From the NCBI GenBank assembly GCA_965216755.1, contig CBDCGL010000011.1, positions 1,856,001 to 1,920,000 of the forward strand: a DNA stretch of 64,000 nucleotides, given 5' to 3'. A program made the position numbers and the translations under genes. The stretch is from Alphaproteobacteria bacterium (GTDB lineage: Bacteria; Pseudomonadota; Alphaproteobacteria; UBA7887). The notes under the pieces were generated by a model. That model was not told the DNA's origin. It saw only the letters and a program-made list of their open reading frames with translations, and did no database searches. Position 1 is the stretch's first letter, and the number at the start of each line of letters is the position of its first letter. Positions 30,927-49,315 of the stretch are shown piece by piece.

Positions 30927-31412
30927 TTGCTATCCTAATGAGTCCGAATAGGACACGTGATGCCCAGCAGAAACATTGCACCACAGACAATCGGGTCTTC
31001 CGCCCGCAGTTCATTGTCCTGCCACGCCAGTAACTTGAACGATTCTCCATGCTTGACAAGGTGCGCGAATCACTCTTGGCGGAATCAGGGGCCCAGACAT
31101 TGGGATAGGAATTCGTACACCCGATCCGTGGCAAACCTTGATGTTAGCGCCCCGACCAAACTATCTGAAAAGACCGACATCTCTCAGACCGGAAATGTTG
31201 TCGGCTCAATATGACTTGGCTGTGCGCCCGTTACCGGCGATTTCCCCACGATGTCAGTCTATTGGTTGCGATACCATCGCACCTTCCGATTTGCATTGGA
31301 CATCCCGATCAGTTCGTATATTTGTTCTATAACATTCGATAGCACCACTCGCCGGAACCATTCTGATCTGCGACTCAGTTTTGTTACGGCCTTGCATTTT
31401 TCCGGTCGTCCA

Positions 31413-32972
31413 ATGTCGGATCAAGACGGACAACGTGAACCGTTTCGGTACTCGAACGAAGAACCTTACGGTCATGCATATGCTGGCGAGCTGCCTTGTG
31501 AGATTGATCCAGCGCACGAACCTCAGCTCTTTGAGCCAAAACGCCGTCCGGGCGTAAGATGTTCGACAATATTAGATCTACTGAGGATCTACGAAGGCGT
31601 GGCCATCGCAACAGCGGGGCTAATTTCGTTTGAGTTGTACATTGTCATGGGCGTAGGGGTATTGCGCGGTCAAGAAGTTTCGGGCGTCGAGAAATACCTT
31701 GCAGTTTCCCTCGTCGCAATGGCGTTGGCTGGTGCGGTCTTTCATGGATCTGGCGTGTATCGAGCGGAACTGCTGTGGCAACCGTCCGCGGCGATGCGGC
31801 GGCTCTTGGTGCGGCTTCTTTTGGTTTTTCTTTTTCTGGCTACGGTCGCATTTCTCTCAAAGTCATCTCATTTGTTCTCGCGAGGTTGGGGCATAACGTG
31901 GCTCATATTATGCGTGCTCCTATTGGCCTTGGGTCGCTACGGCGCCTTTTACCTCGCCCGCCGACTCAACAAGTCAGGATACCTTGATCAGGCGGTGGCG
32001 ATCGTCGGAGATCGCGCCTTCGGGGCGGACCTTTGGTTGCGCTTAACCAGTGACACCAAGAACGGAATCGATGTGGTTTGCACTTGCCTTGGTGTAAACC
32101 AACATCAGGGCTCAAAAGACGTCTGGGATTTTCAGAAGAAGCTGCACGATTTCCGTGAATTTGCACGCAATAACCCGCTCGATCAAGTCATCATAGCCTC
32201 AGATTGGTCAAACACGCGTGGCATCCAGAGAATTGTTGACGCACTGAGCGAGTTGGCACTGGATATCCGTTTGGCGCCGACCGGCAGCATATTGGATATC
32301 GCGGGTCATTCGTTTGGCGTTGTCGGTGGTATTCCCATGCTCAACCTTGGGAAAAAGCCCCTGGACGACTGGTGGCGCTTTGGCAAATCAGTCGGAGATC
32401 GCTTTATTGCGAGTTTCTTATTGGCTACATCCACACCAACAATAGTACTAATCGCAATATTGATAAAACTCCAAAGCCCGGGACCGATATTATTTCGGCA
32501 AGCTCGCTATGGTTTTCACAAGAAGTTGTTTCGTGTCTATAAATTCCGCACAATGTACGTAGAGAATCAGGACCTCGCTGCAGAAAGGCTTGTGACGCGG
32601 GACGATTCGCGTGTCACGCCTCTGGGGCGTCTCTTGCGACGTTATAGCCTCGACGAACTACCCCAACTTTATAACGTTATTCGGGGTGACATGTCGCTTG
32701 TCGGACCTCGGCCACATGCGCCGGCGGCGAAAGCCGGGGACCGCCTTTATCAAGACGTCGTCAGCGACTACGCTAAACGCCATAAAATGAAACCTGGGAT
32801 CACCGGCCTGGCGCAAGTTAGAGGATGGCGCGGCGAAACGGATAATGAAGACAAGATTCTTGGCCGCGTGAAGTGTGACTTGGAGTACATTGATAATTGG
32901 TCGATTTGGCTTGATTTAAAGATCCTTGTCAGAACAATTATTGTGGTGGTCCGAGGTACTAATGCCCATTGA
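31413..32972 (+). CDS. Undecaprenyl-phosphate glycosylphosphotransferase (WcaJ-type priming glycosyltransferase)
   Basis: N-terminal TM helices, YKFRTM, SLDELPQLYNVIRGDMSLVGPRP, KPGITGLAQV and DLEYIDNWSIWLD. Confidence 0.94.
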   Translation: MSDQDGQREPFRYSNEEPYGHAYAGELPCEIDPAHEPQLFEPKRRPGVRCSTILDLLRIYEGVAIATAGLISFELYIVMGVGVLRGQEVSGVEKYLAVSLVAMALAGAVFHGSGVYRAELLWQPSAAMRRLLVRLLLVFLFLATVAFLSKSSHLFSRGWGITWLILCVLLLALGRYGAFYLARRLNKSGYLDQAVAIVGDRAFGADLWLRLTSDTKNGIDVVCTCLGVNQHQGSKDVWDFQKKLHDFREFARNNPLDQVIIASDWSNTRGIQRIVDALSELALDIRLAPTGSILDIAGHSFGVVGGIPMLNLGKKPLDDWWRFGKSVGDRFIASFLLATSTPTIVLIAILIKLQSPGPILFRQARYGFHKKLFRVYKFRTMYVENQDLAAERLVTRDDSRVTPLGRLLRRYSLDELPQLYNVIRGDMSLVGPRPHAPAAKAGDRLYQDVVSDYAKRHKMKPGITGLAQVRGWRGETDNEDKILGRVKCDLEYIDNWSIWLDLKILVRTIIVVVRGTNAH

Positions 32973-33092
32973 CATTTTTTTTCGAAACTTGAACGGCCTG
33001 CGGAATTGATGCGACTCTCTTGTTGAAAGCGCAGATCGGAACGGATTTGATCGTTTTCTGAATTAGGTTCGATTCGAACAAGCTATTTGTAA

Positions 33093-34457
33093 ATGGTTTT
33101 TTGGGTCCTCGTTGCCGCTGTACTGCTAACACCCTTGGCAATTGGCTCAGTTGTCATGATGGCGTGGGCAATGTTGGCGTGTCTCGTTGGCGTATTGCTT
33201 CTGGTCTGGTGTTCTTGTCTGTTTGGTGGTTGGGATAGCGCAAGCCTTCGTACGCGGTTGTCGCCATGGTACGTTGTACCTTTCGTACTGATCTGTTTTT
33301 GGATCGGAATCCAACTGTGGCCCACCAATCTGCAAAGCCCCACCACCGAATTCTGGCAAGGAGCGTTCGATGCATTGGAAATGATGCCACGACCGGCTCC
33401 GTTGTCGATCAATCCCTTCGAAACCGTGTCGGCCCTTGTCCGACTCTTAACTTATGCGGGCATTTTTTGGCTTGCAGCTCAATATTGCTATTCCACTCGG
33501 CGTGCGGAACAAGCTTTCGTTTCAATAGCCGTCACCGGGCTCGCATACGGTCTTTACGGACTCGTAGTACAGTTTGGCGGTTTCGACAAAGTCCTGTGGT
33601 TGGACAAAGCGGCCTATGCAAACGTTGTCACGTCGACGTTCGTCAACAGAAACAGTTACGCCACATTCGCTGGAATCGGATTGATTTGCACCATAGGCGT
33701 TTTGGTCAAACGATATGTCGACAGTACCGACTTTGACGCGAGCCTTCGGCGAAATGTCTTAAATGTTATTCGCCTGGCCATGGAAGAAAATCCGGTGCTC
33801 GTTCTGGCTGCACTGGTCATATTGACATCGCTGACCTTGACTGCTTCGCGTGCGGGGATCCTTTGCACTTTTGTTGGGCTCGCTGCGTTCTTTCTTACTT
33901 TTCGTCCAGCGGGTGCGATGACGTCCCGCAATCTTGGAAAAGTCGCTTTTGTGGTGGCACTGTGCATCGTCGGCGTGGCGACCTATAACGGTGCAAAAGT
34001 CCTCGATCGCATGACCACAGCCGATGCCGACATGGACGAACGGCTGAAGATCTACCAGGTGACCTTAGAGGCAATTAAAACAGCCCCGCTAACCGGATTC
34101 GGGTTTGGCACATATGCTGACGCGATTCCACGTTTTCGCGACGAACGCATCGACGGACCGTTCGATAAGGCACACAGCACTTACCTAGAAATGGCCGTTG
34201 AGGTCGGTTTGCCGGCGGCGGCTCTTATATTACTTGCGCTGGTGGGACTGATTCGCCAGTGCGCGTCAGCAATACGGACGCCCAATACGGCCTCAGCATA
34301 TCCGGCGATCGGACTGGGTGTTACCGCGCTCGTCGCCACACATTCTCTTGTGGATTTCAGTATGCAGATTCCTGCGGTAGCGGCCCTCTATGCCATGGTC
34401 ATGGGCATTGCGGTGGGGCAATCTGTGCGTTGCCGGGAATCAGTTCGGGACCTCTGA
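33093..34457 (+). CDS. O-antigen ligase/polymerase (Wzy_C) family membrane protein
   Basis: Multiple TM helices, TFVNRNSYA, TASRAG, GFGFGTY, KAHSTYLE and HSLVDFSMQIPA. Confidence 0.9.
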   Translation: MVFWVLVAAVLLTPLAIGSVVMMAWAMLACLVGVLLLVWCSCLFGGWDSASLRTRLSPWYVVPFVLICFWIGIQLWPTNLQSPTTEFWQGAFDALEMMPRPAPLSINPFETVSALVRLLTYAGIFWLAAQYCYSTRRAEQAFVSIAVTGLAYGLYGLVVQFGGFDKVLWLDKAAYANVVTSTFVNRNSYATFAGIGLICTIGVLVKRYVDSTDFDASLRRNVLNVIRLAMEENPVLVLAALVILTSLTLTASRAGILCTFVGLAAFFLTFRPAGAMTSRNLGKVAFVVALCIVGVATYNGAKVLDRMTTADADMDERLKIYQVTLEAIKTAPLTGFGFGTYADAIPRFRDERIDGPFDKAHSTYLEMAVEVGLPAAALILLALVGLIRQCASAIRTPNTASAYPAIGLGVTALVATHSLVDFSMQIPAVAALYAMVMGIAVGQSVRCRESVRDL

Positions 34458-35204
34458 TGGCACGACGATCTGACCCTGCAAGATTCTGTTGAACGCCGCG
34501 CTGTCTTCCGCGTTGTCTCCAATCGCACGAATCGCGATATCCGCCCGCGCCAAATGATGTGCGAGGGCGACAACACTCCGACGATCATCATGTTTCCAAG
34601 CCAGACGAATTTCGCTTAGAACAGCGTCGCGTGCAAAAGTGCTGAGATGATCCCAAAGCGCAAGGCCAAGCTCAAGCCGGGGGAACGACAAGTCACGTTC
34701 GTGGGGGGCGGATGTGAATGACATTTCGAGTGCTTCGGCCGCGTGCGGCGTCGGTCCATTTATCACCGCCTCCGCAAACGACAGACGCGCCCAAGCAAAC
34801 GGGCGCACCGGCGATAGGGACAGTCCGCGACGAAGCGAAGCAATTGCGGCTCGTCCGGACGTCACATCGATGACCCCCTCACCACCCAGCAGCTCGCCCA
34901 ATGTCAGGTGCGCAGATCCCAAATCCGTGTGGACGCGCCCCGAGGCGACGTACCGCGCCATCGCGGTTCGTGATTCGATAAGCTCTCTGAGTTCGGAAAC
35001 CGTTGGATCTAGACCGGCACGCATGACAGCCAGCGTCGGTTCGCCCGGCAACCCGATAACTGCCGCCACGAGGCGCGATAAGCCACAATACACCAGGAAC
35101 ACGCCAACAATCGCCGGTACGGAAACGGAAACGACACCGATTACGCCGAGCGGCTGTTTTATTGAGTTCTTCGATGTCTTATGGAGCCGTTGCCACACAT
35201 CCAA
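34440..35204 (-). CDS. Hypothetical membrane-anchored helical (TPR-like) protein of the EPS cluster
   Basis: One N-terminal TM; LSLSPVRPFAWARLSFA TPR-like segment; converges on the ligase gene. Confidence 0.7.
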   Translation of the reverse strand: MDVWQRLHKTSKNSIKQPLGVIGVVSVSVPAIVGVFLVYCGLSRLVAAVIGLPGEPTLAVMRAGLDPTVSELRELIESRTAMARYVASGRVHTDLGSAHLTLGELLGGEGVIDVTSGRAAIASLRRGLSLSPVRPFAWARLSFAEAVINGPTPHAAEALEMSFTSAPHERDLSFPRLELGLALWDHLSTFARDAVLSEIRLAWKHDDRRSVVALAHHLARADIAIRAIGDNAEDSAAFNRILQGQIVVPSEVPN

Positions 35205-35240
35205 TCAAAGCTCCAAAGAGATCTCCACCCGGAGGACGAG

Positions 35241-35669
35241 CTAAAAAACCAGCCTGCGCGGCGCGTGGCCAAACCTTCGCCCTCTCAAATACATACTATG
35301 CTTCTTGTGATTGCCGCCGTAGGCATATGCAAAGTGATGGCGCCTCTTTTTCGCCAGTCTCTGGCGGATCAATCTTATGCGCTCTCTGATCTGTCGTTTT
35401 AGGTGCCTTATTCTCTTAAGTTTCTTTTTGAGTATGTCCGGGATGGTCGGGCTCTTCATCTTGTGGCCGCCATGTCCCGACATATACTTCGACGAAACAA
35501 AGTAATTTGTCGGTACGAAATATCTGGCAGGTTGCTCATGCCGGTGCCGCTCCGGCATTCCCCAGCCGTCATCCGCAGACGCCTCGCCAACGTCAAAGCC
35601 GACCAACGCCATAAAGGCGATGACCATCGTGAAAGCCGTCGCGGCTTTGAAAAAAACTTTCACAATCAA
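35241..35669 (-). CDS. Secreted, highly basic Lys/Arg/His-rich hypothetical protein
   Basis: RBS GGGGGA, signal peptide ending ASA-D, then a K/R-rich helix. Confidence 0.55.
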   Translation of the reverse strand: MIVKVFFKAATAFTMVIAFMALVGFDVGEASADDGWGMPERHRHEQPARYFVPTNYFVSSKYMSGHGGHKMKSPTIPDILKKKLKRIRHLKRQIRERIRLIRQRLAKKRRHHFAYAYGGNHKKHSMYLRGRRFGHAPRRLVF

Positions 35670-35889
35670 ATTCCCCCGAGCTTAAGCTCCCACAAACGCA
35701 CGCTGGACGTACATACAGTTAATATTTGTCGGCTTCCTGTCAAATTCACCACCAACAATAAAGAAAGAATATTTATAGCACAATGCTAACGACACGAGGG
35801 ATTCTTTTGGCCTGGGATACTGTGCAAATCATCGGCACATCAGCGGTAACGACCATGGCGAACCCGGCGCGGACAAGCGACAATGCCAT

Positions 35890-38184
35890 TTAGCTCGTGT
35901 AGTAATTTTTGCCATATTTGGATTTGTAATATACACCAGCCTCGCCGGATCGGTATGCTGCAAGTCTTCGTACATCGACACGCGATAGTAACACACCGGC
36001 AATGTCGCCACCGGCGTCCTGCAGGCGTTTCGTCGCCAGTCGTGCGGTCTCCCGGCGTGTTTCGGCCCAACGCACAAGAAAGACAATTTTGTCGGCCCGC
36101 TTCGCGAGGATCTGCGCATCTGATACGGCCATTACGGGCGGCGTATCGACAACAACGTAGTCAAATGACTTGCGCAGCTGACGCAATAAGTTCGCGAACT
36201 TCTCGGAACGCAATAGATTGGGCGGATTGACCGTCGGCATACCCGCGGTGATGAAATGTGTGCCACTCTTGGCATCCCGCTGCAAAACCACCTCGGGTCC
36301 CGCATCCTCGATCAGATAGTCCACCAAGCCCGGTTTCCGTGTCGAGGACAGGAGCATGTGTACCATGGGGCGGCGCAGGTCGCAGTCAACGATGACAACA
36401 TTCTTGCTAACCGCCGCCAACGCGCGCGCGAGGCAAACGGCCACCGTGCTCTTACCTTCGCCCGCGACCGACGAGGTCAACATTATGGTTTTGGGTTCTT
36501 GATCCAAAGCTGACAGCATCAAATTCGTATGCAGTGTGCGAATCGACTCGGCAAAGGCAGATGCCGGCTTGTCCAACGAATAGTCTTGCGGTGAGATCCG
36601 GCCAAAGCGGCTCAACGACGGCACCAACCCAAGATTGCCGACGCCCAATTGAGCCTCGATCTGCTCTCCGTTTCTGAAGCCGCTATCAAGGGTTTCTACC
36701 AGGAAAGCAAGGCCGACCCCCAGCACGCCGGCCCCGACAAACGCCAGACTCAACAATAGCTTGACCTTCGGAAATGATGGTTCGAGGGACTCGGTCGCCT
36801 CGGTTATTATTTGGCCTTCGGCCCTATCAAATCCTTCTTGGCTACCGATTTCTTTGAATCGCGTTAGGAAGCGCGCAAACAGGGCCCGATTTGCTTCGGC
36901 TTCCCGTTCCAAGGCACGCAACTTGACCTCAGAGCCTTTAAGGGCTGCGGCCTGCGTGTTCAAACGCGCCACCTCGCCTCTCAGATACCTTTCGCGTGCA
37001 GCGGCGACGTCCAGATTGGTTCGCCGCCGCTGCAGCTCCTTCCGTATTTCGTTTCCGATCTGCGCATTCAGGTCGTCGATCTCCGCGGCGACACTCAGCA
37101 TTTTCGGGTGACGCGGCCCATATTCTTGCGCCATGTCGGCGACCCGCCGGGTCAATAGTGCCTGCTCGCTACGCAAGTCTTGAATAAGGCGCGAGTCCAA
37201 GATCTCCGCCGCTGCGGGTAGCCCGCCGGTATTGGTGATCGATTCCAATTGGCGCACCTCGGCTTCGGCCTCGGCTTTGGCGCTGTTCGCCAGTACAAGC
37301 TGTGTGTTCAACTCCGAAATCTGTTCGGCCGCCAGCGACGAGTCCTTACCCTCGAACAAGCCGGAGGCGGCTCGGTACTCCTCCACCGCACGATCCGACA
37401 CCAGCGCCTTTTCGCGCAATTCTTCCAGGCGCTCGCCGAGCCACTGGCTCGCCCGTTCGGTGGCTTCAAAGCGTTCATCGAGTTGCGAGACGATATAAAG
37501 ATCGGCGATCTTGTTCGCCACCGCCGCCGCAGTGGCAGGTTCGGCAGATTTGAACGAGATTTCGATCGCCCGCGACAACCCCTTTTGCTTTACGGTAATC
37601 GAATCCAAGACTCTACTAACAACTTTAGCGCGTGTATGTGCGGCTTCCTCGGCCACATCTTCAACCAGCTCATCCTCTGCGCCGACCGTGCTCAACCACG
37701 CCGTTGGAACCAATTGGGACAGATCAAGCAATTTTTTCGCCGGATGCGGATCACGCAACGCGTCGTTAAATTCCGGATTCGCCAGCAATCGCAGGTCGTC
37801 GACCGCGCGGCCGATCAACTTTGTCGATGTTATCCGTTGAATTTCGCTCTGCACCGCTTGAGCATCGCTAGGCAAACCGCCAACGACGGCATCAATGTCA
37901 ACAACCGATCGCTCACGCGGGTCAAGCATGATCACCGCCGTCGCGGTGTAGATCGGCGTCAATTGAAACAATATTAGGGCGGCGATCGTGGTGCATATGG
38001 CCGTCATACCGGCGATTATCACCTTGCGTCGCCAAATCATGTTCAACAACGCTTTGAAGTCGACCAGCTCGTCATCGGGCCCAAGGCCTGATGCGGTCGC
38101 AAGCGGCTCCAAATTCTCTATTGTCGCGAAACGCGACCCGAGAGCTTCATCTTTTCTCACTAACACGTGTGCCATATCGGCCAT
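35890..38184 (-). CDS. Polysaccharide co-polymerase / tyrosine autokinase (Wzc/ExoP/GumC)
   Basis: Wzz-type N-terminus, YGPRHP, Walker A GEGKST, DCDLRRP, VVDTPP and Tyr-rich tail YYKSKYGKNYYTS. Confidence 0.95.
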   Translation of the reverse strand: MADMAHVLVRKDEALGSRFATIENLEPLATASGLGPDDELVDFKALLNMIWRRKVIIAGMTAICTTIAALILFQLTPIYTATAVIMLDPRERSVVDIDAVVGGLPSDAQAVQSEIQRITSTKLIGRAVDDLRLLANPEFNDALRDPHPAKKLLDLSQLVPTAWLSTVGAEDELVEDVAEEAAHTRAKVVSRVLDSITVKQKGLSRAIEISFKSAEPATAAAVANKIADLYIVSQLDERFEATERASQWLGERLEELREKALVSDRAVEEYRAASGLFEGKDSSLAAEQISELNTQLVLANSAKAEAEAEVRQLESITNTGGLPAAAEILDSRLIQDLRSEQALLTRRVADMAQEYGPRHPKMLSVAAEIDDLNAQIGNEIRKELQRRRTNLDVAAARERYLRGEVARLNTQAAALKGSEVKLRALEREAEANRALFARFLTRFKEIGSQEGFDRAEGQIITEATESLEPSFPKVKLLLSLAFVGAGVLGVGLAFLVETLDSGFRNGEQIEAQLGVGNLGLVPSLSRFGRISPQDYSLDKPASAFAESIRTLHTNLMLSALDQEPKTIMLTSSVAGEGKSTVAVCLARALAAVSKNVVIVDCDLRRPMVHMLLSSTRKPGLVDYLIEDAGPEVVLQRDAKSGTHFITAGMPTVNPPNLLRSEKFANLLRQLRKSFDYVVVDTPPVMAVSDAQILAKRADKIVFLVRWAETRRETARLATKRLQDAGGDIAGVLLSRVDVRRLAAYRSGEAGVYYKSKYGKNYYTS

Positions 38185-38419: not shown

Positions 38420-39010
38420 TTGCCCTCCTAACGATGAATGGAGCCGAACATGGTTTTGATCTTATTGCCAAAGTGAAATGGCCGCGCGTGCCCGTTCTAA
38501 AGACGAGAACGATGCCTCTTTCACCGATTCGCCTGGGAGATACCGGATAGAGCATTCGGCCCGTGCACCGGCATTTCTTAAACGTGATACACCGTTTGCC
38601 AAAAAACTGCATCACCGCCGAACGAACGACAGATACGCCATATTTATTCTTCCGACGCTCGGCGACCTCCGAAAGGTTGGCGCCCGGTTGTGCCGGCCCC
38701 AGGCCGATAAGAATGTCTCATGCTGGTCCCACATAAAACCGTATGGTTGACCCTGCTTGGGTCCACCCATCTGGCCGTAACCTCGATAGCGACGAAACCA
38801 TATTCCCGCTGTCGATATACAAGTCCCAAATCGATTCGCCGTCCGACGGGTCGACTGGCAGTATTCTATCACTCCAATCACGCGTGAACGCCAATCCGAA
38901 CTCTTGCTCCCAGCCACGATCGTCTCCCGGTGCGTCGACAAGAAGAGTGATTCGCATCTTGAATCATACGAAAATCGCCAAACGACTCTGTTGTCACCAG
39001 AGCCGCTCTA
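38420..39010 (-). mobile_element. IS630-family relic
   Basis: Left end TAGAGCGGC at 39010; degraded OrfA (SDWRSRVI...STRRTANRFG..ISTAGIW..KQGQP), FFGKRCITFKK, and decayed DDE-region fragments. Confidence 0.75.
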
Positions 39011-39291
39011 GCCCCCTTCGCACCCTCTTTTTGCCCCGGCACAGATCGGTTCCTTGCCGGCCCTTTTGTAGTCCGTGGTTGATTCCCGAACAGGCAGCGA
39101 CCTGCGCGGGGATCATTGGAACCTGGCGATTTCACCACATCGATGGATATTCTTGCCGCAAGCAGGGCATGTCGATTGTGGTTGCAGATCTGCATCCGTT
39201 GCACGCAACCACGTTTTTCGCTGTGCTATCTTTGCGGGAGCCAGTGCCGAAACGCCACTTGCGATGGGAAACAGCTCGGAAGCGAGGAAAG

Positions 39292-40353
39292 ATGTCAGAA
39301 TCAAAATACAAGGTTGTTGTCCAAAAACAGAAAGGCATCTCATTCGATCTGGCCGACTCGGCCTATGAGATGGAACGCGAAGCGCTGGATCCCATCGGGG
39401 CAGAGATCGTCGAAGTGGCGGCGGAGACCGAAGCGGACTTCATTGCCGCTGCACGAGACGCCGATGCGCTGATCGGGCGCGGCCGCCGGATCACGCGTCC
39501 GATTATCGAACGCCTTGAGAAATGCGTGGCAATCGGTCTTGGCAGCGTTGGCGCCGATACGGTCGACGTGGACGCAGCGACCGAGCACGGCATCGTCGTC
39601 ACGAACGTGCCGGATGTGTTCATTGAAGAGGTCGCGGATCACACCATGGCGCTCTTGCTGGCCGCGTTTCGCCAACTGCCGGCAATGCATACCTTGACTG
39701 CCGAAGGGCGCTGGGCCGAAGGCCGGCCACAGTTTGCCAATCTGCCGCGTCTATGGGGACAGACGATCGGGCTGATCTCGTTCGGCAACGTCGCGCGTGC
39801 TGTCGCGCGCCGCTGTCCCGCCTTTGGCCTGCGGGTTCTCGCCCATGACCCTTATGTTGGCGAACTGGAGATGACCGAGGCGGGCGTGGAGCCGGTGACC
39901 AGCCTGATGGAGTTGCTCGATCGGTCCGACTTCGTTTCCATGCACGCGCCCCTCAACGCCGAAACGCGCCACATGCTGACCGACCGACATTTCGAACGGA
40001 TGAAACGCACCGCTTTATTCATTAACACCGGCCGCGGCCCAACCGTCGATGAAGCTGCTTTGATTCGGGCGTTACAACAAGAAGCCATTGCCGGTGCTGC
40101 CCTCGATGTGTTTGAGACGGAACCCCTGCCCACGGACAATCCCCTGCTTCAAATGCCGAACGTACTCTGCACGCCGCATATTGCCTCGGCCAGCGCGCGA
40201 ATGGCACCGGAAACGCGGCGCCGTCTTGGCCGAGAACTCGCCACCGTCTTGCAAGGTCGTTGGCCGCGCAGTGCCGTCAATCCATCCGTCTTGCCCCGCA
40301 TGCCGTTGCTTCGCTGGCAACCCTACGCGCAGCGCCGCGGCCCCAATCGCTAA
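39292..40353 (+). CDS. D-isomer 2-hydroxyacid dehydrogenase (CtBP/SerA-like)
   Basis: VTNVPD..EEVADH, SDFVSMHAPL, INTGRG, LDVFETEP and TPHIA; ATG 39292 after GAGGA. Confidence 0.93.
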   Translation: MSESKYKVVVQKQKGISFDLADSAYEMEREALDPIGAEIVEVAAETEADFIAAARDADALIGRGRRITRPIIERLEKCVAIGLGSVGADTVDVDAATEHGIVVTNVPDVFIEEVADHTMALLLAAFRQLPAMHTLTAEGRWAEGRPQFANLPRLWGQTIGLISFGNVARAVARRCPAFGLRVLAHDPYVGELEMTEAGVEPVTSLMELLDRSDFVSMHAPLNAETRHMLTDRHFERMKRTALFINTGRGPTVDEAALIRALQQEAIAGAALDVFETEPLPTDNPLLQMPNVLCTPHIASASARMAPETRRRLGRELATVLQGRWPRSAVNPSVLPRMPLLRWQPYAQRRGPNR

Positions 40354-40450: not shown

Positions 40451-41409
40451 GCGCAACTTGCAACTCATCCAGCAATGCCCTTGCCTGCTTCAAATCGGCC
40501 GTGTCGAAACCTTCGCTGAACCAGCCATAGACGGGCACGAGAAAATCGTACGCCTGCTTATGTTTGTCTTGCTGATGCCACAAACGGACAAGCGTGGTGG
40601 CGGCCCGAAGTTCCCAAGATTTCGCTCGCTGTGACCGAGCAACCTCAAGTGCCTTTAAGTAGGCCGCCTCGGCCAGTGCGTGTGGACTTGGAGTTCCCCC
40701 GGTTTGATGGACACATTTTGACCGATAGGAGAAAGTGTGCGAATGCTGCAAACAAGAAACCCGTATCCCACGGAATTTGGGGAGCAGATAATTTCGTTGA
40801 CCCGAGCAGGGCGCAGTGCTGAGAGCTTTGCCCGCGAGTTTGAGCCATACGCGGCAACGGGCCATCGAGCGCAAAGCGATCGCCAACGTTGGCCGGCAGG
40901 GCCTTGCCACCTGTCACCTTGTCCACCAACGCCGCGCCATCCCTGCGGCCCAAGCGGTTGAGGGTCAGCGTCGTGACATGGCCACGACCGGTCCACGGCG
41001 GGTCGAACGCCAGCCGAACGGTGATCAGCACCGGCCCGCCCGCGGCCAGCGCCGCGATCAGGGCAAAGGTCTCACCCATGTCATCGGCATTGCGTAGCAG
41101 CCGTGCCCCCATCTTTGCGCGCTTGGTCAAGTGTGTCGTCACGGCCAAAGCCAGCGCTCAAGGCGAACGGCTCGATGATCGGATAGAACGCCGAATTGGT
41201 GTGATGCGGCTTTTGCCGATACCTGGCTCGCCGGATAGCAGCAACACTTGGCGTTCCCCATCCTGGGCTTGGTTCCAACGTCGCAACAGCAGGCCGATCT
41301 CTTCTTCGCGGCTGACCAAGGGTGTCAAAGCGGCGCTATGTGCGGCCTCGAACGCCTCGGCATATTCGCCCACGTCCTGCTCCCGCAGCCACGCCCGGAT
41401 ATCCGACAT
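40440..41409 (-). pseudogene. Relic of a SAM/adenylate cyclase/AAA/TPR gene
   Basis: RBS GGAGG, SAM-like start MSDIRAWL, TPLVSREEE, GEPGIGKSRI, VTGGKALP and C-terminal KSWELRAAT...YGWFSEGFDTADL, spread over several frames with large deletions. Confidence 0.85.
40689..40866 (+). mobile_element. IS3-family relic (left IR plus start of orfA) inside the cyclase pseudogene
   Basis: TGGAGTTCCCCCGGTTTGATGGACAC IRL-like end, RBS AGGAG, then MLQTRNPYPTEFGEQIISLTRAGRSAESFAREFEP. Confidence 0.8.
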
Positions 41410-41673
41410 CCGTTTCCTCCACGCGTAAGACCACGCGCAGCACAACCAACATGCAGCTGTCAGGTCAAAAGCCGATTGCCCGGCGAAGACTGTGGGTCGG
41501 CGCACAAATCATTGAAAAGTTGAAGATAATGTCCAAAGCACGGGCGGGCGAACGATGTCGTCCACCAAGAATGCCACAGCATGTTCGCACCGCCCGTGAC
41601 CCTATTCTGGCCAAGTGCACGTGTTAACCACTGCCCCGGACGCGCAACCGGCCACACATCACCGAGAGAGACG

Positions 41674-42094: not shown

Positions 42095-43039
42095 ATGTGC
42101 TCTGATGTCTTGACTTCCAGGTTAAACGTGTCTGCTCGGATCAGTATGGCCGTTACTTTTCTGGTGACGCTGACAGCCTCAACCGGCAATGCCGTGGCTC
42201 AGGATCGTGATTTCAGCACTGTCGAAATCAAGACGCATCAAGTTGCCGAGACGATCTACATGCTCGAAGGCGCCGGCGGTAATATTGGCGTGTGGGCTGG
42301 CAATGACGGTGTATTCTTGATTGACGATCAATACGCGCCACTCACCGACAAGATCCTCGCAGCGATCCGTGAGATCTCAGACCAAGGCGTTCGTTTTCTG
42401 ATCAACACCCACATTCATCCCGATCATGTGGGCGGCAATGAGAATCTCGGTCGTCACGGAGCCGCGATCATTGGCCATGAGAATATTCGAAAGCGGTTGA
42501 TGGAGGGTGTGTTCGGCAATCCGCCCGCGCCAGCAATTGCCTTGCCTGTCATCACTTTTGAGCACGACCTCATGTTCCATCTTAATGGCGAGGACGCACG
42601 CGCCTTCAAAGTGCCGGATTCACACACGGATGGCGACACGATCGTGCATTTCCAGGGATCAGACGTCATTCATACCGGCGACGTATTTCGCACCACAAGC
42701 TATCCTGTCATTGACACGCGCAATGGCGGCACGTTTCGCGGCACGATCGAAACCCTCGATATAATTCTCCAGACCGCCGGTCCCAATACCAAGATCATTC
42801 CCGGCCATGGAATGGTGACCGATAGAGCCATGGTCCAGACATTTCGGGATATGGTCGCGGATATCGGCGCGCGGATTGCTGCACGCGTCGACAAAGGACA
42901 GTCGCGCGACGAGGTCGTGGCGGCGAAAGTGACCGCCAGCTATGACGCGCAGTGGGGTTATCCGGAAGGCTTTTTCTTTACCAACGATCGCTTGGTCGAG
43001 ATCATTTACGATGAACTGGCGGGTGACGGCCAACGGTGA
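42095..43039 (+). CDS. Secreted MBL-fold metallo-hydrolase
   Basis: THIHPDHVGGN, SHTDGD, HTGD and IPGHG motifs; signal peptide AVA-Q. Confidence 0.92.
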   Translation: MCSDVLTSRLNVSARISMAVTFLVTLTASTGNAVAQDRDFSTVEIKTHQVAETIYMLEGAGGNIGVWAGNDGVFLIDDQYAPLTDKILAAIREISDQGVRFLINTHIHPDHVGGNENLGRHGAAIIGHENIRKRLMEGVFGNPPAPAIALPVITFEHDLMFHLNGEDARAFKVPDSHTDGDTIVHFQGSDVIHTGDVFRTTSYPVIDTRNGGTFRGTIETLDIILQTAGPNTKIIPGHGMVTDRAMVQTFRDMVADIGARIAARVDKGQSRDEVVAAKVTASYDAQWGYPEGFFFTNDRLVEIIYDELAGDGQR

Positions 43040-43076
43040 AGCCGTCCCAATGCCATCAGCCCAAATACCGGTCTAC

Positions 43077-43739
43077 CTACCGAGGCAACAGCTCGCTCGA
43101 CGCGATTAGTTCCGCGTGGCTTGGATGCTGCGCATAGGCGCTGAAGTCGTCTTGGGCGACCACATGCGTCCAGCGAACGATGCCGCTACGGTCTATCAGA
43201 AAATAGCTAATTAATGGTGATACATCGTCCGGCGGGCCTTCCTCCGACGCGTCTTGTGCTTTGAAGCCGTCCTCCGCATCAATGCGCTTGCCGGCTTCAA
43301 GAACCGTGACCGGCTCGCTGAAGTCGTCGCTATCTTTGAGTAAAGTGCGCCCAAAATCGGCGACATTCAGGACTTCGGGCCAAGCTGTCGGTTGGTCTTT
43401 CGAGAACCGATATATTGGTACGCCGTATCTACGATGAATACCGAGCGTCGGGTCGGCCGCCAGTGGCAATCCTGGTTTCCGATATTTCGTATATAGCCGC
43501 GCCGCCGCGATGGATGTGGTGGTGACAGCCAACGTCTCGACCCCCTGCGTATCCAGTTCCTTTGCTGTATAGGCGAGCGCCGCCAAGTTACGCCGACAAA
43601 ATGGACATTCGAAGCTGCGTAACAAGGCCAGCAACAAGGGTGCGCGTTCGAGGTAGTCGGTCAACCGTACCCGATTGTCACCATTCACCAATGGCAAATC
43701 GAAATCAGGCGCTCGCGCGCCCGGCGCAACCATTGTCAT
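43077..43739 (-). CDS. AhpC/TSA-like redoxin (CPFC), paralogue A
   Basis: PGARAPDFDLP, ECPFCRR, LAADP..IHRRYG and FLIDRSGIVRW. Confidence 0.88.
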   Translation of the reverse strand: MTMVAPGARAPDFDLPLVNGDNRVRLTDYLERAPLLLALLRSFECPFCRRNLAALAYTAKELDTQGVETLAVTTTSIAAARLYTKYRKPGLPLAADPTLGIHRRYGVPIYRFSKDQPTAWPEVLNVADFGRTLLKDSDDFSEPVTVLEAGKRIDAEDGFKAQDASEEGPPDDVSPLISYFLIDRSGIVRWTHVVAQDDFSAYAQHPSHAELIASSELLPR

Positions 43740-44034
43740 TTGAGCTGATCCCTTTGTCGCAACACCTTCCGCTCTCCGCCGCAATATGGGCGTGCGCGCG
43801 CGGATCTTCAATCACATTGCTCAACAGCCGCGGCGCATCCGCCCACGACATCCGGAACCGCTCCAGATGACCGTGGGAATTGAGTTCCGCCCCACGTGCC
43901 AGCGCGGTCAATCAGAGTTCGCCAGCGGAGTAAACGCCTTGCGCAAGTCGTGTTGATTCGTCGCATATGATAGGTTTCGTGGAAGTGTGTGTGGAAACGC
44001 AACGAGGAAACGCGCCGGTGCGACCAACCGTAAG

Positions 44035-47000
44035 ATGAACTGCTCGACTTGCCAATACGAGCTCGAATCTGAATTCCGGTTTTGCCCGAAATGTGGGTCG
44101 AGACAAGCGCGAACTTGCGCGAGTTGCGGCACCGAATGCGCACCGGATTTCTCTTTTTGCCCGCGCTGCGGCAATACCCTCGATAGCCAGCCATCCGCGA
44201 CGGCATCCAAGCCTGCCGCAAACCTGGAAAAAGAGGCTGATCGTCGGCCTGTGACGGTCATATTTGCGGACTTGTCCGGGTTTACCACCCTGAGCGAGCG
44301 TATGGATCCCGAGGAAGTGCGCGCCCTTCAGGATGACTTCCACCACGCAATCCGTGATGTGGTACGTGAATTTGACGGTTTTCTAGAGAAGTTTGTTGGC
44401 GATGCCGCGCTCGTCATATTTGGCGCCCCAATCGCCCATGAGGATGATCCGGAACGTGGGTTGCGTGCCGCCCTTGCCCTGATGGAACGGATAGACACGC
44501 TCAACGAACGCTGGCAAGCCCGCGTAGGCCAGCCGCTTCGACTCCACATCGGCGTCAATACCGGACCGGTGGTGGCCGGCGCACTTGGGGCCGCGGGGGA
44601 CGCTGCCTACGCGGTCACCGGCGATACCGTCAATACGGCAGCAAGATTACAGTCCGCGGCTGGACCGGGCGAGATCCTTGTCGGCCCGCAAACCCATAGT
44701 CTGACCCGTCAGCTGTTCACATTCGAGCCTGTCGGCGAAATAAGCATGAAAGGGAAGTCCGTACCGATATTTGTCTATCGGTTATCAAACCAAGGACTGG
44801 CATCCGGTCTCGGTCCGGCCCGCGGCCTGGCAAGCTTTGGTCTTTCGGCGCCGCTGATCGGGCGAGTCAAGGAAATGACGCAGCTCAAGACTGTCTATGC
44901 GCGCGCTATCGGTGGTCGCGCCCAAATCGCGCGCATCGTGGGCGATGCCGGCAGCGGCAAGACCCGCTTAGTTGATGAATCGCTGGGCGAATTCGCCGAC
45001 GAAATGGAACAATCGAACGCGACAGTTCATCGGACATCTTGTTCCGCCCTCGGCCGTCAGGGTTTTGGTGTGTTGGCACAACTCGTTCGAAACGCCTTCG
45101 AACTCGATGAAACAGACGATTTTGAGAGTGCCCGTAACAAGATACGCCGCGGGCTTGTTGCGGCAAGCGCAGATGGTGATGTGCACCATATTGTGTCATC
45201 ACTCGGCCCCATCTTAGGGTTGGCGTCACAAGACGGCGACCCCAATACCGTGCCGCCTGAGCAGCTGAAACGCCAAATATTTGTAGCTGCCCGCGACATG
45301 CTTGAGACTTGGTTGAACGCCGGCCCAGTGATCATCGTGATTGAAGACCTACACTGGAGCGATCCGGCATCAGTCGAAGTATTGCGGTACATGGTCGAAC
45401 ACGTCTCCCAGCAACGCGTTCTTCTACTCGTAAGCCACCGCCCAACGTGGGATGCCGCTGCGTTACACACAGAAAACACGCCGCAAACGATCGTTAGGTT
45501 GTCGCCACTTGATGAGACACATTGTCACGCGCTATTCGATTGCTATTTCGGCGCGTCAACGTCGACTATTTCGGACAAGGTGCGCAGCTTCGTCGCGGCG
45601 CGTGCAGGTGGTAATCCGTTCTACCTTGAAGAACTCGTTCGCAGCCTAATTGAAAAGAAACTCATCTATCGGGAGGAAGGCATTTGGACCTCCGCCCACG
45701 CGGATGCGCCGGTCGATATCCCGATGACAATCCAAGGTCTGCTCATTTCCCGCCTTGATCGGCTTTCCGATGAGCTGCGGGCGCGGATCCAGGAAGCGGC
45801 CATATTGGGGGTCGTGTTTCGCCGCAATTTGCTTGCCACCCTGGCCGGTCCCGAAGCCGATGTCGAAAGCGGTCTGGCGGCGCTGTGCGAAGCGGAAATC
45901 GTTGAGCGGATCGACCAGCCTGGCATGCCGTACGATCGCGACGGAGACCCGCAATTTCGATTTACGCATGCCATCGTGCAAGAGGTGATCTACGAAAATC
46001 TGCTGATGCGGCGGCGGACAGAACTTCACGGTTTAGCCGGTGAGGCACTCGAAAAACATTGTAGTGGCACGCCACAACGTTTGGAAGACGCGGACGCACT
46101 GGCGCGTCATTTCAGCCGCTCCGCTGACCAAACGAAAGGGCTCAAATATCTCGTTGCCGCAGGAGATTGGTCGCGACGCAGTTTTGCAGCGGAGAATGCC
46201 GCCAGTCACTTTCGCATCCCGCTTCAATTGGTGGAAAGAAACGGGCGCAACTCTGCTCTCCATTGCGATATATTGGAACGCCTCGCTGACACGCTTGGCG
46301 CACTCGGTGAACGTGATGCCGCTTTGGCTTACTATCGCACCCTTTTGGAGATGGTGACCGCGCCAGATCACGCGATAGTGCGGGCGCGTACGCTGCGCAA
46401 GATGGCGGGTTTGCACTGGGAGGCTGGCGAACGCGACACATCGTTTGCGAATTTGCAGGCGGCGCTTGGTTTGGTTGGCGAGCATGAATCGTCAACCGAG
46501 CGTGGATACCTTTGCCAAGAGATGGGGCGACTCGCCTTTCGCAGTGGTGACAACGAGAAAGCCATTGATTGGGCCGGTCGGGCGCTTAGCGCAGTGGATC
46601 CAGCGGTTACCGCTGCCGCGACAGCCCATGGGCAACCGAATGGGGATGCTGCACGTATTGTTGCCGAAGCATATAACACGATCGGCGTTGCAAAAGCGCG
46701 TCTCGGAGAGTTTACTGATGCCGTTGCCGATGTTGAACGGAGTCTCGAAATTGCTGAATTCAATGAGCTCCACGATGTCTCTTGTCGCGGCTATACAAAT
46801 CTTGGGGTTCTTTACAGCACGCTTGATCCAAGACGCGCGATCGACGTGTGTCAGCGCGGTCTCGCGGTGGCGATCAAAATTGGCGACTTAGCATATCAAT
46901 CACTGCTCTACGCAAATCTCGGCGTGTCATACTGTACATTCACCGGGCGTTGCGAGGGTGAAGGTGTGGATGCCGTGCGCCGCGCCATCGAACTCGACCG

Positions 47001-47292
47001 ACAGCTGGGCCTGGTCGACCATCTACCGGTATCGCTCATCGCGTTGGGGCAAATCTATCAATGCCACGGCCAACCGCGTATGGCGATTGAGTTCTACCAA
47101 GAGGCGCTTGAGCTGGCAGTTGATTCAAACGAACCGCAGCTCTTGTTTCCTTGTTACGACGGACTGGCCACCGTTCATCTTGACATCGACGATTTGACCA
47201 GCGCTGAGAAATACATGGAGCAAGCGCAAGCGGTGTGCGAGCGCGCGGGCCTGGATCCGGATTCGTTGGTCGTCATGCCATTCCTGTGTTGA
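44035..47292 (+). CDS. Double zinc ribbon - class III nucleotide cyclase - STAND/AAA16 ATPase - TPR protein
   Basis: Four CxxC pairs, FADLSGFT, EKFVGDA, GDTVNTAARL, Walker A GDAGSGKT, Walker B IEDLHW, GGNPFYLEE and a TPR array. Confidence 0.94.
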   Translation: MNCSTCQYELESEFRFCPKCGSRQARTCASCGTECAPDFSFCPRCGNTLDSQPSATASKPAANLEKEADRRPVTVIFADLSGFTTLSERMDPEEVRALQDDFHHAIRDVVREFDGFLEKFVGDAALVIFGAPIAHEDDPERGLRAALALMERIDTLNERWQARVGQPLRLHIGVNTGPVVAGALGAAGDAAYAVTGDTVNTAARLQSAAGPGEILVGPQTHSLTRQLFTFEPVGEISMKGKSVPIFVYRLSNQGLASGLGPARGLASFGLSAPLIGRVKEMTQLKTVYARAIGGRAQIARIVGDAGSGKTRLVDESLGEFADEMEQSNATVHRTSCSALGRQGFGVLAQLVRNAFELDETDDFESARNKIRRGLVAASADGDVHHIVSSLGPILGLASQDGDPNTVPPEQLKRQIFVAARDMLETWLNAGPVIIVIEDLHWSDPASVEVLRYMVEHVSQQRVLLLVSHRPTWDAAALHTENTPQTIVRLSPLDETHCHALFDCYFGASTSTISDKVRSFVAARAGGNPFYLEELVRSLIEKKLIYREEGIWTSAHADAPVDIPMTIQGLLISRLDRLSDELRARIQEAAILGVVFRRNLLATLAGPEADVESGLAALCEAEIVERIDQPGMPYDRDGDPQFRFTHAIVQEVIYENLLMRRRTELHGLAGEALEKHCSGTPQRLEDADALARHFSRSADQTKGLKYLVAAGDWSRRSFAAENAASHFRIPLQLVERNGRNSALHCDILERLADTLGALGERDAALAYYRTLLEMVTAPDHAIVRARTLRKMAGLHWEAGERDTSFANLQAALGLVGEHESSTERGYLCQEMGRLAFRSGDNEKAIDWAGRALSAVDPAVTAAATAHGQPNGDAARIVAEAYNTIGVAKARLGEFTDAVADVERSLEIAEFNELHDVSCRGYTNLGVLYSTLDPRRAIDVCQRGLAVAIKIGDLAYQSLLYANLGVSYCTFTGRCEGEGVDAVRRAIELDRQLGLVDHLPVSLIALGQIYQCHGQPRMAIEFYQEALELAVDSNEPQLLFPCYDGLATVHLDIDDLTSAEKYMEQAQAVCERAGLDPDSLVVMPFLC

Positions 47293-47382
47293 AAGAAAAA
47301 AGCTATGACAGATGAAAGCGTGGGTCTGATGGCAGCATTGCACGCGCCCGCGACGACGCCCCACCTAGCCTTTGGCCGATAG

Positions 47383-48072
47383 ATGAACGCAGTCATGTCG
47401 AACGAGCCCCAAATCAACGAGCCGCTGCGGATCGGCGATGCCGCGCCAGACTTCACATTGCCGGCAGTGAATCGCGAAGGTGAAATAGGCCTCGCCGACT
47501 ACGCTGGCCGGCATGCCCTATTCCTGGGGCTGTTCCGTGGTCTCCACTGCCCTTTTTGCCGGCGCCAAGTTGTGCAGATGAATGGACTGGCAGCAAAACT
47601 CCGTGAGCTTGGCATCGAATCCGTCGCGGTCGTCAACACCACATTGGCGCGGGCGCGTCTCTACTATGGGCGTCGCGCGATGAATATGGCTCTGGCCGTC
47701 GACCCCGAATGGGACACGCACAGGCGCTATGGCCTTGGTCGGCCCACATTGACCGAAGGCCAATCAGATTGGCCGCGCACGATGAATTTGAACGAGTTTC
47801 TGGCGATGCGAACCAACCCAACCGGGGAACTGCCAGAATCGCTTTCGCCGCTCGACGCGAACGAAGCCCTTAATCAACACGATGGCTTCGAGCCGACCGA
47901 AGTTGACCGACAGATACAAGCGGACCACGGTTTGACAGGCGCCGGCTATACACTGATCGGTACCGACCGTCGCGTCCATTGGACTTGGTTGGAAGGCCAA
48001 ACCGGCATGGCCGACATCGCCAAGTTTCCATCCGAAGACGAGATATTCGGCGCGGTCAAATGCGCCGTTTAA
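47383..48072 (+). CDS. AhpC/TSA-like redoxin (CPFC), paralogue B
   Basis: IGDAAPDFTLP, FRGLHCPFCRR and LAVDP..THRRYG. Confidence 0.9.
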   Translation: MNAVMSNEPQINEPLRIGDAAPDFTLPAVNREGEIGLADYAGRHALFLGLFRGLHCPFCRRQVVQMNGLAAKLRELGIESVAVVNTTLARARLYYGRRAMNMALAVDPEWDTHRRYGLGRPTLTEGQSDWPRTMNLNEFLAMRTNPTGELPESLSPLDANEALNQHDGFEPTEVDRQIQADHGLTGAGYTLIGTDRRVHWTWLEGQTGMADIAKFPSEDEIFGAVKCAV

Positions 48073-48104
48073 GGCGCATATCGAGCGCGCGCGGCACCAA
48101 GCGC

Positions 48105-48566
48105 TAGAGCGCTTTCCGACCATATTGAACCATTCTGTCGGAGCGACTTTGTGACAAGATCAAGTCGATGTCCGCAGGCCGTATCGGGCATACGGCTACG
48201 GACAGCGTCGTCGCGATTGTCACAAAATCGCCCGGCCCTGCGGGTTTGCGACCGGCAGGCGTCCCCCAATGGGAATCCATGTGGACGACCACATTGGTCG
48301 GCCGACTTGCCCGATGCGCGCGTGCGGTGGATCGGACGTTCGCTTGATCTCGCAGCGAGCACCAGAGCGAACGTTCGATCCGTGAACCGCACGAGATCCA
48401 AATATTCGGCTCGTGTCCTGACGAAACCGAAGTTCGTAAGGTGCCTGGGGTCAGACGTGACCAACTGCGGTTTCGGGACACGAGCGGCGCGTTGCGGCGC
48501 CCTTTGTGTGGACCACCGCGCCGGACCGCAAACAGAATTGATTCAATATGGTCGGAAAGTGCTCTA
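48105..48566. mobile_element. 462-bp non-autonomous element (IS630-type MITE) with a highly structured interior
   Basis: Terminal inverted repeats TAGAGCGCTTTCCGACCATATTGAA / TTCAATATGGTCGGAAAGTGCTCTA (1 mismatch in 25) with TA ends; no convincing ORF; several long internal hairpins. Confidence 0.8.
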
Positions 48567-48577
48567 ACACCGGCAGC

Positions 48578-49315
48578 TCAAGACTTACGCTGGCGCCGGA
48601 ATTCCTCATACATCTCGGGCGAAGGCGGATAGTAGCGGCCCGGTGGCACCTGGTCGCGAACGATCCTTTCTTTGACGTACGCCTCCACCGCTTCATGTTC
48701 CTCAACAATCACCACACATTCTTCGGCGAACCACGACGGAACCACAACAACACCGTCCCCATCACCGACCAACACGTCACCGGGGCGCACCAGCACGCCG
48801 CCGCACTGAATTTGCACGTTCTCCTCGGCAGGTTCAGCCCAAGGCTCGGACGCATAAGGCGTCCGGCTCCGCGCATAGACGATCAAGTCGTATCGCTCCG
48901 CGGCCATGACGTCGAGATCACGCATGCCGCCATCCGTGACGATACCGTCGGCGTTGTTCATTTTCAGTTGCAGTGCCTTGACATCACCAAAAACGCACGC
49001 CCGCGTCTCACCCATCAAGTCACACACCAATACGTCGCCGGGGCCGCACCGCGCCATGGCGCGATATTCGGGCGAATCCTCCCCCTTCCTGACTTCGGCA
49101 ATAAGATCTGGTCGAGGCGGCAAAAACCGAAGCGTGCGGGCCCGCGCCGCCAGTCGCTCTTGTTCCCGGGTGTAAAGTTCGAGACCTTCGATGAAAGGCA
49201 ACGCCACGCCGGCATCGTGAACAACATGATGCCAAATCGTCGCGACCGGCAGTTTCTTGAAGCGGTCAAGAATTTCCTGCCCGATAATCCGCGTTTCGAA
49301 CGATGATCGAGACAT
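48578..49315 (-). CDS. RraA-like / HMG aldolase family protein
   Basis: ARTLRFLP, GDVLVCD, FGDVKA, VTDGGMRD and VRPGDVLVGDGDGVVVVP. Confidence 0.9.
   Translation of the reverse strand: MSRSSFETRIIGQEILDRFKKLPVATIWHHVVHDAGVALPFIEGLELYTREQERLAARARTLRFLPPRPDLIAEVRKGEDSPEYRAMARCGPGDVLVCDLMGETRACVFGDVKALQLKMNNADGIVTDGGMRDLDVMAAERYDLIVYARSRTPYASEPWAEPAEENVQIQCGGVLVRPGDVLVGDGDGVVVVPSWFAEECVVIVEEHEAVEAYVKERIVRDQVPPGRYYPPSPEMYEEFRRQRKS

Follow-up and report, generated by a model that had tools for sequence, protein, structure and literature searches.

A redoxin gene kept beside a cyclase-STAND-TPR gene: a conserved two-gene module and candidate redox-gated switch

What does a small thioredoxin-fold protein do next to a large signalling ATPase? 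The question is raised by a locus in a 64,000-nucleotide stretch of DNA (hereafter the window) from an Alphaproteobacteria bacterium of the UBA7887 lineage (assembly GCA_965216755.1, contig CBDCGL010000011.1, positions 1,856,001 to 1,920,000). In this locus, a gene whose product (P0002) joins a zinc ribbon, a class III nucleotidyl cyclase domain, a STAND NTPase core and tetratricopeptide repeats (TPR) lies between two genes for redoxins with a CxxC motif, one divergent upstream (P0001) and one co-directional downstream (P0003). An original prediction, made from the DNA letters, had proposed that the redoxins set or relay the thiol state of the TPR sensor and so control cyclic-nucleotide synthesis; open reading frames (ORFs), translations and Pfam agree on the three genes and their domains at the positions that it had given. 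We find that the locus belongs to a conserved two-gene signalling module, made of a MalT/AfsR-type STAND ATPase and a thioredoxin-fold CxxC protein. A dedicated functional pairing of the redoxin with the cyclase-STAND-TPR gene is well supported, and the redox-gated switch that the two may form is proposed more tentatively.

Linkage of the redoxin and sensor genes

We looked at the linkage from both sides. A tblastn search with the last 211 residues of P0002, the presumed sensor, matched 23 plasmid or chromid records, nine of which were examined. A redoxin gene adjoins the sensor gene in all nine, which come from Sinorhizobium, Phyllobacterium, Mesorhizobium and Variovorax. The two genes are co-directional, with annotated gaps of 18-23 bp, in Phyllobacterium zundukense, Phyllobacterium sp. 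A18/5-2, Mesorhizobium sp. WSM1497 and Variovorax sp. PBL-E5 (in the window, 90 bp separate the P0002 stop from P0003), and they are convergent in Sinorhizobium medicae WSM419 and ml29 and in S. meliloti LMB1. In S. fredii NGR234 (pNGR234b, L087) and CCBAU 83666 (L088), only the last ~110 residues of the sensor are left, with the redoxin directly after them. The redoxin there gives a match over residues 11-204, and what is left is a decayed megaplasmid copy of the pair.

From the redoxin side, one scan of species-representative genomes gave 467 relatives of P0003, the best 80 of which were kept. A cyclase-STAND gene bearing the same terminal TPR module (TPR2, the 211 residues used above) lies within a few hundred bp of the redoxin in 33 of the 80 loci, either complete, frameshifted into pieces or truncated at a contig end, and in four more (L015, L023, L024, L078) only remnants of it are present. 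Among the 33, cyclase then redoxin is the order in 27, the genes are convergent in five, and redoxin precedes cyclase in one; two loci (L050, L062) have an extra divergent upstream redoxin, the same layout as in the window. Neither gene nor remnant is seen in 43 loci, in several of which the flank is too short to judge (e.g. L001, L019, L025, L033, L061). Four of these 43 have a different cyclase beside the redoxin: a SAM-cyclase-AAA_16-TPR protein in L002, cyclase-TPR proteins in L043 and L070, and a zinc ribbon-cyclase-AAA_16 protein in L046. All together, the adjacency spans alpha-, beta- and gammaproteobacterial as well as Rokubacteria-type genomes, in three orientations. The redoxin-cyclase linkage had been set beforehand, together with the TPR cysteines, as a point on which the redox proposal was to stand or fall, and it is conserved: it was found in 9 of 9 sensor-first records and, counting remnants, in 37 of 80 redoxin loci, a fraction that gives no family-wide rate since the 80 are the loci most similar to P0003.

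Several side observations were made at these loci. Redoxins from metagenome-assembled genomes labelled delta proteobacterium, Dormiibacterota, Limnocylindria and Verrucomicrobiia (L011, L013, L026, L027) are almost identical to those of Rokubacteria/Methylomirabilota, with end-branches of 0.012-0.072; binning errors therefore probably make the pair look more widely spread over phyla than it is. A 72-codon ORF lies between tandem redoxin copies in L035 (2682-2897), L039 (2163-2378) and L044 (4817-5032). Its last ~30 residues repeat the sensor C-terminus, including ...LTVLPFLL and the stop, so that the cyclase gene tail was evidently duplicated in tandem together with the redoxin. In Burkholderiales- or gamma-type loci (L025, L029, L032, L034, L036-L039, L072), a gene for a ~380-aa receiver-domain cyclase follows the redoxin(s) immediately, in convergent orientation; L032 and L038 have a ~2100-aa histidine kinase with nine GAF domains after this small cyclase, and in Mesorhizobium (L084, 7422-8492) a small cyclase in the same place is followed by a Rab-family GTPase and an OmpA protein. 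Such small cyclases may give the same circuit of cyclic-nucleotide signalling a second input. In Variovorax sp. PBL-E5 (L082, 2466-3176, minus strand), the gene divergently adjacent to the cyclase encodes a 236-aa protein that is annotated as cyclic nucleotide-binding and whose N-terminal half is hydrophobic. A tblastn search with it found no match in the other related loci or in the window, and a conserved nearby cyclic-nucleotide receptor was rejected, PBL-E5 alone having one.

The sensor module and its cyclase-STAND body

The TPRs of P0002 reach to about residue 1087 in Pfam (TPR_12, 91 bits; TPR_MalT, 43.8 bits, slightly under its cutoff of 45). Over 24 full-length orthologues, the mean identity to P0002 is 59% in TPR2 versus 38% in the first TPR half; it is 61% in the cyclase domain and 38% in the NTPase region. 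By these alignments TPR2 is about as conserved as the catalytic domain. A TPR2 profile compared with 1.84 billion cluster representatives gave 416 matches below 1e-30. Of the best 150 listed, 43 cover the module to its end, and 42 of these 43 stop exactly one residue past PFL or PFF, as do the proteins at our loci.

Cysteines and histidines were counted in 34 sequences aligned over the whole of TPR2, namely 33 representatives of 50%-identity clusters and the window. H1012 and C1026 are kept in 34 of 34, C1056 in 32, C983 in 30, C933 in 27, C1084 in 24, and C955, C989 and H1027 in 21 each. The TPR cysteines to which the original prediction drew attention thus exist and are conserved, C1026, C1056 and C983 above all. 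Its terminal cysteine, C1101, is not: it is kept in 14 of the 34 representatives and in 7 of 25 orthologues. It was rejected as a relay point because it is variable and shows no correlation with gene orientation.

An AlphaFold2 (AF2) model of P0002 residues 721-1101 is an all-helical TPR solenoid (pLDDT 88) that resembles the LGN TPRs and MalT domain III (1hz4), with a template-modelling score on the query (TMq) of 0.73. C983, H1012, C1026 and C1056 presumably stand at or next to the usual groove-facing positions of TPRs, a placement that uses our own repeat register and a list of common groove positions. C989 and C1084 are lost jointly in 9 of the 13 relatives without C989; a disulfide between them was rejected and the joint loss is read as shared ancestry. 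Secondary structure puts the two on opposite edges of the repeat stack. Complex prediction for the TPR arm (721-1101) and the redoxin gave runs scored 0.57, 0.00 and 0.00, which we use neither way.

The heads that precede TPR2 differ among its bearers. Pfam finds a cyclase-AAA_16-TPR arrangement, mostly with a zinc ribbon, in 14 of 21 longer representatives, a Ser/Thr kinase head in two (P0134, P0141) and a BTAD head in two (P0127, P0139); three have no recognisable head and look N-terminally cut. The Pkinase- and BTAD-headed forms retain the TPR2 cysteine set. TPR2 thus behaves as an input module, which would locate sensing there.

In P0002 itself, the cyclase domain matches PF00211 at 102.3 bits (cutoff 21.9) and the AAA_16 domain PF13191 at 67.2 bits (cutoff 32.6), with a Walker A motif reading GDAGSGKT. 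The NCBIfam model TIGR03903, a TOMM kinase/cyclase STAND fusion, scores 243.6 bits over residues 60-742, its cutoff being 705.75. Orthologues in 23 full-length loci share 44-48% overall identity with P0002, and L042 35%. The 25-sequence orthologue alignment is dominated by close relatives, and figures from the 34 TPR2 representatives are safer. In the 25, the second zinc ribbon (C44, C47, C58, C61) is kept in 22-23 sequences; the first, kept in 2, is mainly specific to P0002. The cyclase motifs FADxxGFT, EKFVGD, YAVTGD and VNTAxRLQ are conserved, together with D95 (in FADxxGFT), D139 (in GDA) and the Asn and Arg of VNTAxRLQ, which we take to be the metal-binding aspartates and the transition-state Asn/Arg pair. 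The adenine-specifying pair is incomplete: the Lys (EKFVGD) is kept, and the usual Asp/Thr position, for which the original prediction had described the Ala of YAVTGD in P0002, holds Ala in 24 of 25 orthologues and Thr in L042 alone. With Ala at this position, the cyclase product is not readable from sequence.

The redoxins and the rest of the window

Both redoxins match AhpC-TSA (51-57 bits) and Redoxin (41-44 bits) in Pfam, the cutoffs being ~26; P0001 scores 57.5 and 43.8 bits, respectively. They are paralogues, as first proposed, with 33% identity over 208 aa (E 1e-38), and their duplication is old since they fall in different clades of the redoxin tree. In this tree of four clades, P0003 groups with Rhodospirillaceae-type redoxins that do not adjoin an orthologous cyclase, and P0001, which has a long branch, groups with the downstream redoxins of L050 and L062. 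A search of similarly long proteins gave 1718 relatives of P0003 at E ≤ 0.001; where they are named, it is as 'peroxiredoxin-like family protein' or 'redoxin domain-containing protein', and many family members also carry PF13911.

All 24 aligned members of the family have an invariant CPFCRR (C56 and C59 in P0003) and an insertion of ~55-60 residues with W, NP, LP and DGF landmarks. The original prediction had singled out both features in the two redoxins; both are real, but they are common to this large family, and the insertion, found throughout, is a signature of the redoxin family and not of the locus. In the AF2 model of P0003 (pLDDT 90), the insert, at about residues 120-185, is folded as a sub-domain with two short strands and three helices. 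Foldseek matched only the thioredoxin-fold core (DsbE 3gl3, ResA, Bcp, Prx) with a score on the target (TMt) of ~0.77; TMq reaches only ~0.5 because the insert has no counterpart in solved chains. The best matches in sequence and fold are 3gl3 (DsbE), 4nmu, ResA and Bcp1.

The redoxin has known relatives and differs from each of them. It shares the thioredoxin fold and a CxxC at the active-site position with TlpA/ResA/DsbE, Bcp/Prx and PRXL2-type AhpC-TSA_2 proteins, and it is set apart from TlpA/ResA/Prx proteins by its insert. Unlike TlpA/ResA it has no signal peptide, so it is expected to be cytoplasmic. Where peroxiredoxins have the Thr of PxxxTxxC, the redoxin reads HCPFC, with Cys in place of Thr, and NCBIfam peroxiredoxin models score far below their cutoffs; the position of the peroxiredoxin catalytic Arg falls beyond the insert, in a region of no confident alignment.

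Features of the locus and of its flank are collected in Table 1. A scan of 42900-48700 for promoters and terminators gave nothing above chance; it found one promoter site versus 2.4 expected by chance, and no promoter is claimed between P0001 and P0002.

Table 1. Positions of the paired genes, their domains and nearby genes in the window.
Feature	Position	Strand	Basis or detail
Upstream divergent CxxC redoxin P0001	43077-43811	-	244 aa from TTG; CPFC at 43596-43607
Likely start of P0001, Met25	43739	-	ORF and translation
P0001/P0002 divergent intergenic region	43740-44034		Read from sequence
Zinc ribbon/class III cyclase/AAA_16 STAND NTPase/TPR protein P0002	43987-47292	+	1101 aa from GTG
Likely start of P0002, Met17	44035	+	Translation; gives 1085 aa
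Double zinc ribbon of P0002	44041-44172	+	Pfam DZR, residues 19-62
Class III nucleotidyl cyclase catalytic domain of P0002 (predicted output)	44245-44763	+	PF00211, residues 87-259
AAA_16 P-loop NTPase core of the P0002 STAND module	44851-45426	+	PF13191, residues 289-480
Terminal Cys/His-bearing TPR module of P0002, TPR2 (presumed sensor)	46657-47289	+	Residues 891-1101
C-terminal tail of P0002, LVVMPFLC	47266-47289	+	Family pattern hydrophobic-hydrophobic-LPFL-x-COOH
Downstream co-directional CxxC redoxin P0003	47383-48072	+	229 aa; CPFC at 47548-47559
Metallo-beta-lactamase (MBL)-fold hydrolase	42095-43039	+	Pfam; signal-peptide-like N-terminus
Decayed SAM-cyclase-AAA_16-TPR type gene	40458-41505	-	Frame-broken fragments at 40458-41352

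Two neighbours had been placed alongside the system by the original prediction, an MBL hydrolase and a relic second cyclase. The hydrolase is real and weakly similar to SoxH-related 'quinoprotein relay' hydrolases (91.8 bits, cutoff 280). No copy of it was found in the 89 related loci (80 redoxin and 9 plasmid), on which ground it was rejected as a part of the system, and it is probably unrelated to the cyclase pair. The relic is indeed a decayed cyclase-type gene, closest to the genes beside the L002 and L003 redoxins. It retains, in different frames, a SAM-like start with a P-loop piece, more NTPase pieces and the C-terminal 70 residues, but no cyclase domain is left, and neither neighbour is conserved with the pair.

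Farther away, a polysaccharide cluster at 31251-38184 encodes a sugar transferase, a Wzy-type ligase and a Wzz protein with a tyrosine-kinase-like ATPase. Local GC is 0.506 at 32-34 kb versus ~0.58 elsewhere, and the cluster may have been horizontally acquired. A D-2-hydroxyacid dehydrogenase ORF (38743-40353, plus strand) is open for 536 codons with its enzyme domains starting at about residue 210; the first ATG is probably far upstream of its real start.

How the pair might work and what it would mean

Our preferred reading is a redox-gated switch, in which the redoxin would read or set the thiol state of the sensor module, either as an oxidant relay or as a reset reductase. The resulting change in the TPR arm would release the NTPase, which would oligomerise and bring cyclase domains together into active dimers, and the paired domains would make a cyclic nucleotide. 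In class III cyclases the active sites form only on dimerisation. We infer the physical contact, the thiol exchange with its direction, and the nucleotide made; we put the probability of this switch at roughly 0.4. It keeps the core of the earlier redox-control proposal, since linkage and TPR cysteines are conserved, but drops the terminal-cysteine relay, the insert as a peculiarity of the locus, and the membership of the hydrolase and the relic.

A number of observations weigh against it. The 43 redoxin loci without the sensor gene, together with the survival of the redoxin beside decayed sensor genes (L015, L023, L024, L078 and S. fredii), indicate that the redoxin has a life of its own; moreover, no orthologous cyclase stands beside the redoxins most similar to P0003 (L001-L009, L014). 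Pairs in convergent orientation cannot share a transcript. In the related loci no conserved gene for an electron donor lies near the pair, and no redoxin-sensor fusion was found at E 1e-10 among proteins of 402-2000 aa, which is weak evidence. The terminal cysteine is variable, the conserved Cys/His may serve as metal ligands or in packing, and the 25-sequence orthologue set has many near-identical Rokubacteria-type rows.

The alternative that survives best takes up the metal ligands: the Cys/His of TPR2 would bind a metal (Zn, Fe or an Fe-S cluster) or a small ligand that is itself the signal, and the redoxin would keep the thiols reduced or repair the site. The most conserved set is one of three Cys and one His (C983, H1012, C1026, C1056), at or near positions that we place in the groove. 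TPR scaffolds are reported to be able to carry engineered [4Fe-4S] clusters (PMC6484676). However, in the AF2 secondary structure a 14-residue helix has H1012 at one end and C1026 at the other, so that the two cannot belong to one metal site, and TPR2 contains no classical CxxC or CxxCH metal motif. Metal binding alone also leaves unexplained why a specific CxxC redoxin stands next door in three orientations. All in all, we think this explanation rather unlikely.

Less likely still, in our view, is that the redoxin is a co-regulated or co-inherited stress enzyme rather than a partner of the sensor, with the cyclase sensing something unrelated and the adjacency reflecting a shared regulon or joint transfer. 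The independent occurrence of the redoxin, without a cyclase in those 43 loci and outliving decayed cyclase genes, would be expected of such an enzyme, and apart from the pair itself the surrounding genes are not conserved in the loci inspected. Yet the adjacency is held across several bacterial classes, in three orientations and in every sensor-first record; four redoxin clades are involved, and unrelated cyclase-TPR genes pair with family redoxins too.

A defence system of the Avs/Pycsar kind, in which the STAND sensor would detect a phage protein and the cyclase signal to a killing effector, is very improbable and was rejected. In its favour, STAND NTPases with TPR sensors are common in defence, and PADLOC PycC models match the cyclase domain at up to 61.8 bits. 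Any class III cyclase would be expected to give such generic matches, however, and PADLOC has no match for either redoxin. No cyclic nucleotide-binding domain appeared when the 62 greedy ORF calls of the window were scanned with Pfam (one related locus has it). The sensor is the most conserved part, unlike defence sensors, and the setting is one of ordinary chromosomal genes.

The redox-gated switch can be set against known systems. With STAND ATPases of the MalT/AfsR clade, in which we include the AfsR/SARP regulators, PknK of M. tuberculosis and Rv0386-type cyclases, P0002 shares the order of effector, AAA_16 NTPase and TPR arm, and the cyclase, Ser/Thr kinase and BTAD effectors of that family are all found on TPR2 relatives. 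P0002 differs from them in its near-invariant Cys/His terminal TPR, its fixed LPFLx C-terminus and its redoxin gene partner. The proposed logic is that of yeast Orp1/Gpx3-Yap1 and of Tpx1-Pap1, in which a small thiol enzyme passes oxidation to the cysteines of a signalling protein; here, oxidation would be received by a STAND ATPase and read out as a cyclic nucleotide. In the chaperedoxin CnoX (YbbN), a thioredoxin-fold domain is reported to work with a TPR domain (PMC6282202); both are fused in one protein with a proteostasis role, whereas our module has them in separate genes, with the TPR as part of a signalling ATPase. In titles and abstract openings, we found nothing on the redoxin pairing or on a redox-gated bacterial STAND cyclase. 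The protein types are thus known (MalT/AfsR-clade STAND ATPases with cyclase, kinase or SARP heads; TlpA/ResA/Prx-like redoxins), and their pairing is new to the literature searched.

The kinase- and BTAD-headed relatives invite a wider and doubtful extension: that TPR2, the LPFLx tail and the insert-bearing redoxin would form a general cytoplasmic redox-sensing cassette for STAND ATPases. In such a cassette the redoxin would capture an oxidant signal and hand it to thiols of the TPR groove, oligomerisation would follow, and the outputs would be interchangeable (cyclic nucleotide, Ser/Thr phosphorylation or SARP-type transcription). If true, this would be the first redox-relay-gated STAND switch.

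To our knowledge, soil bacteria and rhizobia very commonly have cyclase-STAND-TPR proteins, and the input signal is known for almost none of them. The subfamily described here gives a concrete lead to such an input: a conserved sensor end, near-invariant cysteines and a redoxin kept alongside in many soil bacteria and in several bacterial classes. Moreover, strains that can be cultured and are genetically tractable have the pair (Sinorhizobium medicae WSM419, Phyllobacterium zundukense, Mesorhizobium sp. WSM1497 and Variovorax sp. PBL-E5), so that the hypothesis is directly testable. A thiol relay, if true, would tie the cytoplasmic redox state to cyclic-nucleotide signalling and, via the kinase and BTAD relatives, to phosphorylation and transcription, by a mechanism not described for STAND ATPases.

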